This document shows, one piece after another, positions 16,904-41,763 of a DNA stretch of 64,000 nt (position 1 is the first letter of the stretch; every line of letters starts with the position of its first letter). Under the pieces are notes generated by a model that was given only the letters and a program-made list of their open reading frames with translations, did not search any database and was not told the origin of the DNA. Source of the stretch: a virus. The DNA lies in IMG/VR virus record IMGVR_UViG_3300025108_000016; one strand, written 5' to 3'. The position numbers and the translations under genes were made by a program.

Positions 16904-16980
<77 letters not shown>

Positions 16981-17062
16981 GTCGGTATGGCGGAATTGGT
17001 AGACGCGCCAGGTTTAGGTTCTGGTGTCTTATGACGTGGAGGTTCAAGTCCTCTTACCGACA
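16981..17062 (+). tRNA. tRNA-Leu(TAG)
   Basis: CCAGG-TTTAGGT-TCTGG arm; long variable arm; GTTCAAGTC. Confidence 0.93.
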
Positions 17063-17065
17063 CTC

Positions 17066-17137
17066 GCTCGAATAGCTCAGCGGTAGAGCATCTCCTTTAC
17101 ACGGAGGATGTCGGGGGTTCGATCCCCTCTTCGAGCA
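17066..17137 (+). tRNA. tRNA-Val(TAC)
   Basis: TCTCC-TTTACAC-GGAGG arm; GTTCGATCC. Confidence 0.93.
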
Positions 17138-19159: not shown

Positions 19160-20553
19160 GAGTAGTTGTTGTTGGTGGAGGTACTGCTGGATGGATGGTA
19201 ACTTATTATCTGTCCGAATCTCATCTATGTGTCAATGTCTCTACTGAAGAGATCCCTATCATAGGTGTAGGTGAAGGTACGACGGGTAAATTTCTTGATG
19301 TATTCAAGATGGACCATGTAGAAATGATGCATGGTATGGATGCTTTACCTAAACTTGGCATCAAGTTTGACAACTGGAGTAAGACCAAGCAGAGTTTCCT
19401 TTCACCCATTGATGGAACACCAACAGCTAGTAAATATATTGATTATACTTGTCTTGCCTATGGTCCTGTAGGTAAGCACATCACTTTGATGAACGGCAAT
19501 AAGTCTAACTTCTTTGTCGAACAACCAGACTTGATGTGTGATTATAATCAAAATGCTTTACATCTAGATGCATATAAGACAGGCGAGTTCTTTAAATCTC
19601 AAAGCAAACTACTCAAACATTACGATGCTAAAGTAGTCAAGGTTAATAGAGAGGAAGGATTTATTAAATCTATTGAACTCGATACTGGTGAAACAATAGA
19701 AGGTGATTTATTTGTTGATTGTTCTGGTTTCGCTAGAGTCTTAAGTGCCGCTGATGATTGGGTAGACTATTCTGAATACCTTCCTGTCAATAGAGCATTA
19801 GTATATAAAACAGAGACAGAATCTTCTAGAAAACCATACACTCTTGCTACTGCTAGAAACCATGGTTGGACTTGGGAGATTCCAACTCGTACTAAAATTG
19901 GTAAAGGATATGTGTACTGCGATAAGTATGCATCCGAAGATGATATCCTAGAAGAACTAGGTGACGTTGAGAAAGTCAAATCTATTGAGTTTAAATCTGG
20001 TAGAATTACCAAGTTTCTTGATAAGAATTGTCTTTCATTAGGACTCTCTTCGGGGTTCTTAGAACCATTGCAAGCAACTAGTATTCATCTTACACTGATG
20101 CAATTAGAACGCTTTGCATATGGATATCCTACCGAGGATTTATTCCTTGACAATGAGATGGAAAGAGACTATAATGATTATGTCGCGTCCTTACATGATT
20201 CTATGAGAGACTTTGTGTCTCTACATTATTCTGGAGGTAAAACTGATACTGACTTCTGGAAAGATGCCCGTGTCACTCCCTTTGTAGATAAAATTATTTC
20301 TTTAACTAAGAAAAGACTCCCCCGATCTTTTGATTTTCCTAAGATAGGTGGAGGTGTTGCTCAAGAATCATACAACCCCATCCTATGGGGATTAGGACAC
20401 TTTAATAATTGTCCAGTAAAGCAGACATTTGACAGCGACAACGCTTCTATGGTATACTGGGCAAGCGAAGCAAAGAAGTTCGGTGGTAATACTTCTAAGT
20501 ACTTAACCATTGATGAACTGAACGACATCATCGCTAGTCTTGGGAAGACTTAA
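19156..20553 (+). CDS. Flavin-dependent (tryptophan-halogenase family) halogenase
   Basis: GGGTAG, GVGEGT, PKLGIKF (catalytic Lys), DCSGF, WTWEIP, FLEPLQATSI. Confidence 0.88.
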   Translation: MRVVVVGGGTAGWMVTYYLSESHLCVNVSTEEIPIIGVGEGTTGKFLDVFKMDHVEMMHGMDALPKLGIKFDNWSKTKQSFLSPIDGTPTASKYIDYTCLAYGPVGKHITLMNGNKSNFFVEQPDLMCDYNQNALHLDAYKTGEFFKSQSKLLKHYDAKVVKVNREEGFIKSIELDTGETIEGDLFVDCSGFARVLSAADDWVDYSEYLPVNRALVYKTETESSRKPYTLATARNHGWTWEIPTRTKIGKGYVYCDKYASEDDILEELGDVEKVKSIEFKSGRITKFLDKNCLSLGLSSGFLEPLQATSIHLTLMQLERFAYGYPTEDLFLDNEMERDYNDYVASLHDSMRDFVSLHYSGGKTDTDFWKDARVTPFVDKIISLTKKRLPRSFDFPKIGGGVAQESYNPILWGLGHFNNCPVKQTFDSDNASMVYWASEAKKFGGNTSKYLTIDELNDIIASLGKT

Positions 20554-20560
20554 AAAGCAC

Positions 20561-20690
20561 CCTGGTGCGGGTGAATGCGACTCGCCGCCTGGTTTCTTGC
20601 TTCCAGTTAAAAAGCAAGTGGTGGTGCCAAATACCCTTCCGTGTGGTTGGTTCTTGTTTACAACTAAAACAAACAAGTGGCGTGCATGTG
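20561..20690 (+). ncRNA. manA/wcaG-family cyanophage structured RNA (tandem pseudoknots)
   Basis: Two H-type pseudoknots (CTGG/CCAG with CTTGCTT/AAGCAAG; GGTTG/CAACT with CTTGTTT/AAACAAG), each followed by TGGYG. Confidence 0.7.
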
Positions 20691-34381: not shown

Positions 34382-34435
34382 CATCGGCAGGTTAAGGAAC
34401 CAACACATTTCTTAACGCTTCTTTACACGCCTTAC

Positions 34436-34530
34436 CAAGACTAAACAGCGTGTCTAAACAATAGTCTTTCATACCTGTGCCTAAGGGTGGCATAGGAATA
34501 GTAACTCCACCATTTCCCTGATGGTCTTAC
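34436..34530 (+). ncRNA. PhotoRC-II-like cis-regulatory RNA in the psbA 5' UTR
   Basis: Hairpin CCTGTGCC-TAAGGGT-GGCATAGG and hairpin ACCAT-TTCCCTG-ATGGT with complementary loops (AGGG/CCCT). Confidence 0.7.
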
Positions 34531-40039: not shown

Positions 40040-40299
40040 GTATTACGGGTCAGCATAGTAGCACAACAAATACTTTTTGTATTCAGTATTGGAAACAAGG
40101 CGACTCTGCTAATCCAAAAGTAATGCGTCGTATAAATTCTGATGGCATGGTAGTGTCTGCAAAAACATATGACGAAGTATTCTTTTATTCAAACTTGCAG
40201 AAAGCATTTCCCGATGCAAAATGGTTGCAAGAAAATGGTTTTGATATTAAGATCAGAAAATGTAATCTAGCAAGAAATAATAAGTTCTGGTTGATTTGA
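40036..40299 (+). CDS. Hypothetical protein
   Basis: 87-aa coupled ORF. Confidence 0.65.
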   Translation: MSITGQHSSTTNTFCIQYWKQGDSANPKVMRRINSDGMVVSAKTYDEVFFYSNLQKAFPDAKWLQENGFDIKIRKCNLARNNKFWLI

Positions 40300-40628
40300 T
40301 GGGCGATCATTTTTTATTAAACTTATTTGGGTGTGACGAACAAAAATTAGATGACGAAACATTCATTAGAGAGACTCTTGACAACGCAGCATATTGTGCT
40401 AAGATGTCTGTGTTGAACGTTGCGTCACATAAATTCTATCCACAAGGAGTGACTTGTGTGCTTCTCCTTGCCGAGAGTCACATTAGCATTCACACATGGC
40501 CAGAAGAAGGCACTGCAGCATGTGATGTATACACCTGTGGCAATCCTAGTGATGCACGTTTGGCATGTGATGTGATTAGATATCAATTGTCTGCCCTGGA
40601 GCATGACATGCAGCATCTTAAAAGATAA
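40299..40628 (+). CDS. speD: S-adenosylmethionine decarboxylase family (pyruvoyl) proenzyme
   Basis: HKFYPQGVT..LLAE|SHISIHTWPE..DVYTCG. Confidence 0.9.
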   Translation: MGDHFLLNLFGCDEQKLDDETFIRETLDNAAYCAKMSVLNVASHKFYPQGVTCVLLLAESHISIHTWPEEGTAACDVYTCGNPSDARLACDVIRYQLSALEHDMQHLKR

Positions 40629-40634
40629 TAAAGT

Positions 40635-40679
40635 GTATCAAATAATACACTTTACATATTCTATATAATATGGTATAAT
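40635..40679 (+). promoter_or_regulatory. NtcA-like box abutting a sigma70 promoter
   Basis: GTA-TCAAATAA-TAC (40635-40648); TTTACA(40651)-17-TATAAT(40674). Confidence 0.65.
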
Positions 40680-40686
40680 TACCACA

Positions 40687-40918
40687 CGTTCATCCCCCGT
40701 AAGGAGGACGCAAGTAAGTCGCGGAACGGAGCCGTTCATCCCATGCTAGAACTATTATTCTATACAACACTCTCATGTACTCAAACTGATGCTATCATGC
40801 TGAAGATTGAGAACAATGCGAATCTATCTTCTGTCTTGAAGGTAGAGTTGATTGAGACCCTTAAGGACTCAGCACCAGAATGCCAGTGGTATTGGGACGC
40901 ACACGACTGAAGGAACGG
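40687..40918 (+). ncRNA. Tandem glutamine riboswitch (glnA/Downstream-peptide type) aptamers
   Basis: Two CGTTCATCC..GGACGC..GGAACG units (40687-40728 and 40732-40918); AGTCG/CGACT complementarity. Confidence 0.75.
40743..40910 (+). CDS. 55-aa ORF nested inside riboswitch aptamer 2 (not in ORF track)
   Basis: GGAG SD at 40728; MLELLFYTTLSCTQTDAIMLKIENNANLSSVLKVELIETLKDSAPECQWYWDAHD*. Confidence 0.6.
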   Translation: MLELLFYTTLSCTQTDAIMLKIENNANLSSVLKVELIETLKDSAPECQWYWDAHD

Positions 40919-40950
40919 GGATTAAAAACCCTAACTTCAGGAGACTGACA

Positions 40951-41118
40951 ATGAACACACTAAACATGATCAGAAAGCAGATCAAAAAAGTATCTGCTTT
41001 GCACGACGCACAGATTACACACACTTCATATCGTGGTGTTGAGTATACTACACGTTGTGTTGAATCAAAGGAAACCCATGGCACATTCTGCTATCGTGGG
41101 AAGACCTACAGCAAGTGA
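40951..41118 (+). CDS. DUF4278-like peptide (IF17/GifB N-terminal-like)
   Basis: Two YRG motifs (SYRGVEY, CYRGKTY); AGGAG SD; downstream of the glutamine riboswitch. Confidence 0.78.
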   Translation: MNTLNMIRKQIKKVSALHDAQITHTSYRGVEYTTRCVESKETHGTFCYRGKTYSK

Positions 41119-41135
41119 TAACTTACAAGTAATTG

Positions 41136-41171
41136 AGAAGGGTTGACACCCTTCTTTTTTTATGGTAACAT
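41136..41171 (+). terminator. Terminator with -35 in its loop plus downstream -10
   Basis: AGAAGGGT-TGAC-ACCCTTCT then T run; TTGACA-17-TAACAT. Confidence 0.8.
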
Positions 41172-41192
41172 AGGTGCATGGTAAAAACTCCT

Positions 41193-41354
41193 ATGGAAAA
41201 AAGTAAACTTAAATTAATTGTTCATAATCTAGAGTTACTAATAGAGTCATTAAAAACTGAGGTTTATTCTGATACTAGTTCATATCTACATGAAGATGTA
41301 GAAGGAAGATATAAATACGGTGAACAATATGACGATGATGGAGACCCTGACTAA
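41193..41354 (+). CDS. Small hypothetical protein (not in ORF track)
   Basis: MEKSKLKLIVHNLELLIESLKTEVYSD. Confidence 0.7.
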   Translation: MEKSKLKLIVHNLELLIESLKTEVYSDTSSYLHEDVEGRYKYGEQYDDDGDPD

Positions 41355-41533: not shown

Positions 41534-41763
41534 TGTCATCACCACGCCAGAAAGATCCATCCGATCCACTCTATGATCCTAATGATAAATGGAATGAATA
41601 CAAGGTAGACTTTCATGCTAATGAAGAACACTCACCTGATGAGTGGGATCCAAAGACAGAAGGTAAGATTGCTGACCCACAGAACAGACATCAAGATAAA
41701 GTTCTAGATAAATTCTGTGATGACCACCCTGGTTCACCTATGTGTAAAGTATTTGATGAATAA
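41533..41763 (+). CDS. cp12: CP12 C-terminal-domain protein
   Basis: C-terminal FCDDHPGSPMCKVFDE matches the CP12 C-x8-C tail. Confidence 0.65.
   Translation: MSSPRQKDPSDPLYDPNDKWNEYKVDFHANEEHSPDEWDPKTEGKIADPQNRHQDKVLDKFCDDHPGSPMCKVFDE

Follow-up and report, generated by a model that had tools for sequence, protein, structure and literature searches.

A 55-codon gene in the P2 loop of a nested, double glutamine riboswitch-like leader of a marine cyanomyovirus

Riboswitches are taught as compact non-coding leaders, and a phage RNA leader in which a complete open reading frame (ORF) lies between the strands of a glutamine aptamer core raises the question of how a sensor and a gene share the same nucleotides. 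The locus belongs to a T4-like cyanomyovirus of marine origin and was analysed within a 64-kb stretch of its DNA (the window), between speD (40296-40628) and a thyX-like ORF starting at 41717; the parts of the cassette described below are on the + strand. Ordinary cyanomyovirus features of the window that passed the Rfam cutoffs are three tRNA genes, a wcaG RNA (56.8 bits) and a PhotoRC-II RNA (62.4 bits), found at 16904-17137, 20534-20633 and 34413-34509.

A promoter, an RNA leader, two 55-codon genes and a terminator make up one small self-contained operon. The strong sigma-70-type promoter (40651-40679) has the boxes TTTACA and TATAAT, a 17-nt spacer and an upstream TG (11 of 12 matches), and similar -35 and -10 boxes precede the cassette in relatives; transcription would start a few bases 5' of the aptamer. 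The two-gene cassette ends at an intrinsic terminator (41135-41163) composed of a hairpin (41135-41156) and a T run. With blastn the cassette was found in 417 phage records, cyanophages without exception, and eight diverse genera have the identical architecture with both ORFs annotated. Its neighbours differ between phages (speD, nrdC, nrdB, talC), and the cassette thus moves as a unit.

Within the leader, CGTTCATCC is present exactly twice in the 64-kb window, at 40687 and 40733 (chance expectation 0.24), as is GGACGCA-N10-GGAACGG, at 40706-40729 and 40895-40918 (chance expectation 0.00), and TCCCA at 40739-40743 is complementary to TGGGA at 40893-40897, the two enclosing 149 nt. An earlier note on this DNA had described the shared motifs, the P2 strands, the bounds of the ORF and the overlaps of its start and stop codons, all of them correctly, and had read the repeats as a tandem of two aptamers (units 1 and 2), the second with the ORF in its P2 loop. 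A gathering-level Rfam scan of the window returned no glutamine family. At the E-value level only unit 1 (40685-40732) was detected, at sub-threshold scores of 21.2 bits for Glutamine (RF01739, cutoff 35) and 20.1 bits for Glutamine-II (RF01704, cutoff 33), and unit 2 went without a call because of its insert. A natural example takes the place of the scan with the insert removed that the earlier note had suggested. In Synechococcus phage ACG-2014f (L009) the leader is alike but has no nested ORF, unit 2 being a 4-bp stem with a GAAA loop, and this leader scores 41.1 bits on the Glutamine model, above the cutoff of 35. The Rfam alignment joins the 5' half of unit 1, P3 (AGU.../...ACU) and the 3' half of unit 2, and takes everything between the P3 strands as a P3 insert; unit 2 of the same phage scores 32.1 bits on Glutamine-II (cutoff 33). 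The window falls below the RF01739 cutoff because its P3 insert is about 180 nt long.

The core strands were named a (CGUUC, starting at 40687), s (AGUCG, 40717), a' (GAACG, 40724), b (CGUUC, 40733), s' (CGACU, 40904) and b' (GAACG, 40913). Since a equals b and a' equals b', a tandem pairing (a-a', b-b') is indistinguishable from a nested one (a-b', a'-b) in most sequences, and the distinction comes from variants. In an alignment of 73 sequences (A3), the pair G40724-C40737 is GC in 66, CG in seven and unpaired in none, and the seven CG variants are mismatched in both P1 helices under the tandem model. Half-variants of a' or b were absent from 98 distinct loci. A targeted scan found a' = CAACG accompanied by b = CGUUG in all 84 distinct loci with that a' strand, across nine different linkers, and seven of these (L304, L312, L342, L352, L362, L405 and L418) also have a = CGUUU with b' = AAACG; for these all-four-strand variants only a-b' plus a'-b is Watson-Crick, and tandem pairing gives U.C and G.A. 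The compensatory changes pair a with b' and a' with b, and two self-contained aptamers in series, as the earlier note had proposed, are not what is conserved. The AGTCG/CGACT helix that it had noticed is real, with three pair types covarying over more than 150 nt (AGUCG/CGACU in 73/73, AAUCG/CGAUU in 24/24 and AUUCG/CGAAU in 3/3 sequences); the C-to-U variant of s' is synonymous in the nested gene, and no locus with a change at P3 position 3 or 4 turned up in scans for such variants. The P2b stem persists throughout, UCCC/GGGA alternating with UCCU/AGGA and wobble forms; 34 of 113 loci have 7 bp here, and all of the AUG is then paired. A scan for a G-to-C variant of b' gave chance matches only, as did a search of genome contigs for the a'-b junction motif, with no cyanobacterial example among the matches listed. 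Every helix covaries at one or two positions and is otherwise invariant, and the variants may descend as blocks rather than represent independent events.

The conserved fold that emerges consists of two three-way junctions at opposite ends of a single 5-bp P3. The outer junction is in the standard glutamine-I order and has both E-loop strands. Its P1 is formed by strand a (40687-40691), invariant in A3, and strand b' (40913-40917), and the P2a hairpin (40693-40708) closes in 73/73 sequences despite varied sequence and length, with compensatory changes. The outer J2/3, CGCAAGUA (40709-40716), is invariant, agrees with the Rfam Glutamine consensus, and holds the ligand-site G, the C of a candidate linchpin and the AGUA strand of the E-loop. 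It is followed by s (40717-40721), the 5' strand of the shared P3, whose partner s' (40904-40908) takes in the final sense codon of the nested gene and the U that begins its stop codon. The E-loop strands AGUA (40713-40716) and GAAG (40909-40912) are conserved, the first G of GAAG changing to A in step with an alternative helix described below. Strand b' is followed by G40918 (together 40913-40918), the candidate linchpin partner.

The inner junction is a circular permutation of the same core, in which P1 is closed by a loop of 3-4 nt and P3 is open. The P1 equivalent is the a'-b hairpin (40724-40737), made of GAACG (40724-40728), the loop GAGC and CGUUC (40733-40737), and it includes the GGAG at 40728-40731. 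P2b pairs UCCCA (40739-40743), which ends on the A of the nested AUG, with UGGGA (40893-40897), which lies within Trp-Asp codons and covaries; the inner J2/3, CGCACA (40898-40903), lies within Asp-Ala-His codons and is conserved in the ORF-less ACG-2014f as well. The inner core lacks an E-loop and has shorter junctions (CA and C versus AGUA and GAAG), and for these reasons it may not bind ligand. The candidate linchpins C40711/G40918 (outer) and C40900/G40729 (inner) are placed to pair in the glutamine-II orientation; linchpin covariation is absent because the four positions are invariant save in L050. Nearest-neighbour energies calculated for the window leader are -70.2 kcal/mol for the nested fold versus -65.6 kcal/mol for the tandem, and the ligand-free minimum free energy (MFE) structure (-76.1 kcal/mol) combines the alternative helix with P2b and the a'-b hairpin. 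During transcription a is predicted to pair with a' at first and to be released for b' once b has been made and has taken over a'. P2b has just 5 bp closing the 149-nt loop, and structure in the ORF interior is not unusual (z = -1.6).

Some relatives depart from this form. In L326, L344, L393 and L406 strand b is replaced by unrelated sequence (AGCGTAAGCAATTA...) after a 5' module that is intact up to a', and these may be disrupted or rearranged forms of the element. The P2a of L048, L050, L055 and L078 contains a conserved, structured, non-ORF insert of about 45 nt, which shows that this loop tolerates non-coding expansion too.

The nested ORF (40743-40910) is, judged by its pattern of conservation, a real protein-coding gene. 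It has 55 codons, matches PHROG 504 (E = 4.9e-25; residues 1-55 on profile positions 1-53 of 53) and is annotated in GenBank phages as T4-like gene cluster 430. Its ATG (40743-40745) begins with the final base of the P2b 5' strand (A40743), and its TGA (40908-40910) overlaps CGACT (40904-40908), the complement of AGTCG at 40717-40721. The claim that a complete ORF occupies the P2 loop of the second glutamine-aptamer core stands: 79 of 80 related loci preserve the reading frame, which opens at the AUG of the P2 strand and closes at one common point of the aptamer, with lengths of 53-56 or 64 codons that differ by whole codons. Its body has pS 0.66 and pN 0.27, with a median dN/dS of 0.27 for unsaturated pairs, and conserved residues are written with diverse synonymous codons (six codons for Leu6; GAG in 34 and GAA in 36 sequences for Glu36). 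Like the helices, its conservation and coding status are read directly from the aligned relatives. The final five codons (Trp-Asp-Ala-Asn/His-Asp) double as aptamer core and have no synonymous change in 70 sequences (pS 0), a constraint that acts at the RNA level, since the ORF-less phage has kept these nucleotides too. L068 alone has a frameshifted ORF (approximately 497-560, 21 codons) with the aptamer halves intact, which may reflect decay of the allele or an error in sequencing.

AlphaFold models the nested protein as two helices (residues 12-23 and 30-43; mean pLDDT 82), and Cys12 and Cys47 are invariant. Comparison with Pfam gave no family and comparison with PDB folds no solved-structure match, and the homologues found in BFVD and the protein database are uncharacterised cyanophage, phage or metagenome proteins only. 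A signal peptide or lipoprotein reading of the hydrophobic N-terminus was rejected on a segment of about 11 residues that has a Glu and no lipobox, and a leader-peptide (attenuation) reading on the lack of a Gln codon run and the conserved two-helix fold. The start region (-19 to +3) coincides with the a'-b hairpin and P2b. The GGAG at 40728-40731, which the earlier note took for a Shine-Dalgarno (SD) sequence in the linker, is present as described and is not conserved, the linkers of relatives being TTC, AAC, ATT and others without GGAG. The AUG is transcribed about 150 nt ahead of its pairing strand, so that early ribosomes may load whatever the ligand state.

Other ORFs occupy the hairpin of the outer core in some phages. 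In S-TIM4 (L014, 306-512), L105, L118 and L123 a second complete ORF of 68 codons lies inside the P2a loop, running in S-TIM4 from an AUG in CCAAUG to the UAA in a conserved AAGUAA; with this second ORF in P2a, phages of the S-TIM4 type have genes in both hairpins of the double sensor. Another P2a family of 65-66 codons is found in L053 (263-463), L086, L088, L092, L104 and L129, with the N-terminus MLSILLALTLAHH followed by PYGWHMSCERF; it matches the S-TIM4 P2a ORF (hhalign 97%) and is weakly related to PHROG 504. By profile comparison the P2b families cluster together (A-D 94.7%, D-E 67%), as do the P2a families (97%), with a weak link between the two groups. For all five ORF families and at both P2 positions, the AUG always lies within the 5' stem strand or abuts it, and the stop codon falls within the 3' core or directly at it.

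Downstream of the aptamer, CUGAAG (40907-40912), which overlaps P3, the UGA stop and the GAAG half of the E-loop, can form an alternative helix with CUUCAG (40935-40940), which overlaps the AGGAG ribosome-binding site at 40939-40943 (the 3' side of the feature spanning 40935-40943). The third pair of this helix is GC in 31, AU in 29 and GU in 11 sequences, and the G/A alternation keeps the nested stop as UGA or UAA. The helix is part of the local MFE structure of 68 of 73 sequences, five relatives have a longer platform in its place, and it looks like an expression platform. A longer post-aptamer module, consisting of AAACGGAUCC, a GNRA-type hairpin and AGAAGGUU, stands in place of the short CUGAAG/CUUCAG platform in L008, L015, L024, L037, L061, L304 and L312, and its GGUUC could compete for the GAACG strand.

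The downstream gene (40951-41118; 55 codons) belongs to PHROG 545 and T4-like gene cluster 937 and is DUF4278-like (IF17-like), as the earlier note had recognised. Its product matches DUF4278 (PF14105) with 22.5 bits (E = 1.4e-4), below the Pfam gathering cutoff of 25.3, for which reason it is called DUF4278-like and not a curated member; 11 of 11 aligned relatives match DUF4278 at E <=0.01, the best at 1.9e-6. GUUCAU in strand a (40688-40693), present also in b, is complementary to AUGAAC at 40951-40956 (the start and second codon of the downstream gene); this pairing is used in the full-length MFE structure, is absent where the downstream gene of relatives starts differently, and may be due to chance.

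The reading that we consider probable is that of a nested double glutamine aptamer with a gene in its P2b loop, in which glutamine ON-control of the DUF4278-like gene competes with translation of the nested one. From the conserved sequence features we infer glutamine binding, the sign of the regulation and the coupling to translation. Without glutamine, CUGAAG (40907-40912) would pair with CUUCAG (40935-40940) beside the downstream ribosome-binding site, and expression of the DUF4278-like gene would be low. Glutamine would stabilise P1, P3 and the E-loop and thereby exclude the alternative helix, turning the downstream gene on, and the folded sensor would at the same time bury the start region of the nested gene and hinder initiation there. 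A ribosome on the nested gene, conversely, would melt P2b, P3 and P1 and expose the downstream ribosome-binding site, and one terminating at 40908-40910 would cover P3, the E-loop, b' and the 5' strand of the alternative helix. Translation of the nested gene is thus expected to unfold the sensor and to free, transiently, the downstream ribosome-binding site 40 nt away. Sensing and translation would compete on one RNA because ribosomes on the nested gene must melt the sensor; to this extent the incompatibility of ORF translation and aptamer folding that the earlier note proposed follows from the geometry.

A stronger version, which we hold only tentatively, is that both cores bind glutamine and that the RNA is a switch, coupled to translation, whose two outputs respond in opposite directions. 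High glutamine would then lock the nested fold, with the start of the nested gene buried and the IF17-like gene's ribosome-binding site free; at low glutamine ribosomes would gain access to the nested gene, and their passage and termination would reset the sensor and open the downstream site transiently. If so, the phage would read host nitrogen status and ribosome traffic on a single RNA.

Designed coupling is opposed by three observations, namely that the GGAG is not conserved, that the AUG emerges well ahead of its pairing partner and that the ORF interior has no special structure. The same observations favour a plainer account of the same nested fold, in which the gene in the P2 loop is a passenger, placed there by compaction only: P2 loops would accept any insert in tightly packed genomes, the nested gene would be translated independently of glutamine, and the riboswitch would control the downstream gene alone. 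The length of the P2a loop is indeed free, from 4 to about 45 nt, with other ORFs there in some phages, and an ORF-less form exists. The placement of start and stop, however, is constant across the five ORF families and both P2 positions, the 7-bp stem of 34/113 loci pairs the AUG fully, and the footprint of a terminating ribosome covers P3, the E-loop and P1, which makes some interference unavoidable. We regard a pure passenger as rather unlikely.

The other two alternatives concern the fold and its ligand. Adjacent aptamers at 40687-40729 and 40733-40918, closed by separate P1 helices and joined by AGUCG/CGACU as a kissing helix, would account for each unit being near-complete (the 21.2 and 20.1 bits of unit 1 and the 32.1 bits of the ACG-2014f unit 2 against the Glutamine-II cutoff of 33), for the predicted folding of a-a' first in nascent RNA up to 40732, and for the 99.0% of cells that are still paired under this arrangement. 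This is nevertheless highly improbable: all seven A3 variants mismatch in both P1 helices, the seven all-strand variant loci acquire U.C and G.A in place of the uninterrupted Watson-Crick pairs of the nested arrangement, Rfam aligns the composite aptamer best, and the nested fold is lower in predicted energy. We also think it improbable that the element descends from a glutamine riboswitch and no longer senses glutamine, acting instead as a leader for a protein or another ligand or in mRNA stability or processing only. Such a loss would fit the position of the window under both Rfam cutoffs and a candidate linchpin swapped relative to the glutamine-I consensus (C...G, not G...C), yet all glutamine-contact positions are invariant in both cores, the C...G arrangement is that of glutamine-II, and the association with DUF4278 is as in cyanobacteria.

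The nested double aptamer that we favour resembles the glutamine-I class (glnA motif, RF01739), of which the Synechocystis gifB leader is an ON-switch upstream of DUF4278 genes, with a 3' aptamer strand proposed to pair otherwise with the ribosome-binding site (PMC6212724). Shared features are the P1 CGUUC/GAACG, the conserved A before P2, J2/3 ACGNAAGUA, P3, the GAAG E-loop strand, a DUF4278 (IF17-like) gene downstream and, by prediction, competition of the 3' aptamer strand with pairing at the ribosome-binding site. In the solved structures glutamine is contacted by two P1 pairs, C1-G and G2-C, and by the G of the ACG motif (Ren et al. 2015, via PMC6698751). Unlike glutamine-I, P3 here has no hairpin cap and instead leads, over 5 bp, to a second core that is circularly permuted, one P2 loop (two in some phages) carries a whole gene, the linchpin candidate is C...G instead of G...C, and the window scores under the Rfam cutoff. 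Glutamine aptamers are known in tandem (PMC2864571), and the 157 doublets and four triplets catalogued are described as consecutive and pseudo-cooperative, each unit with its own platform (PMC9481103); the present leader likewise has two cores, whereas these are nested, share P3 and have a single platform. Ligand-site nucleotides are shared with Glutamine-II, whose C...G orientation the candidate linchpin also has; this class (Downstream-peptide motif, RF01704) is found in marine picocyanobacteria upstream of DUF4278 peptides (PMC6698751). Pairing of a with a' and s with s' would recreate the Glutamine-II pseudoknot topology, so that the same four strands can write a glutamine-I junction or a glutamine-II pseudoknot; in contrast to Glutamine-II, covariation rejects a-a' as a conserved pairing, and the score is 20.1 bits versus 33. 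Group I and II introns are self-splicing mobile ribozymes with peripheral-loop ORFs that promote mobility. Introns and the window element both carry an ORF in a loop of a conserved RNA fold around which distant strands pair; unlike introns, the element is an mRNA leader of a ligand-sensor class, and the start and stop codons of its ORF overlap the sensor core.

A survey lists only two glutamine aptamers in cyanophages (PMC5473149), and cyanophage genome papers report single Rfam glnA hits (PMC9964418). This near-absence of riboswitches is explained by covariance models that cannot bridge the insert, as more than 400 records carry the cassette. Among the papers searched, of which Ames and Breaker (2011) was not one, none was found to describe a double aptamer that is nested or permuted, or an aptamer with a gene lodged in it, and on present comparisons the element is apparently a new architectural variant of the glutamine riboswitch, a sensor folded around a protein-coding gene with two cores that share one helix, circularly permuted and nested. 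It would offer a natural system for studying translation versus ligand sensing on a single RNA and may tie phage infection to host nitrogen status via IF17-like proteins, relatives of glutamine synthetase inactivating factors.

Two further features lie at the ends of the cassette. An inverted repeat (GGTA TAAT TACC) surrounds the -10 box at 40671-40682, just 5' of the aptamer, and homologous repeats are found in L001-L016, L053, L086 and L304, with arms that covary between phages (GGTCTA/TAGACC, GGAGT/ACTCC and GGGTGTA/TACACCC); the repeat could serve as an operator, or fold as a hairpin in read-through RNA. A second promoter-like site (41143-41171; TTGACA, 17 nt, TAACAT) shares sequence with the cassette terminator, and the small ORF that follows (41178-41354) could be transcribed from it.
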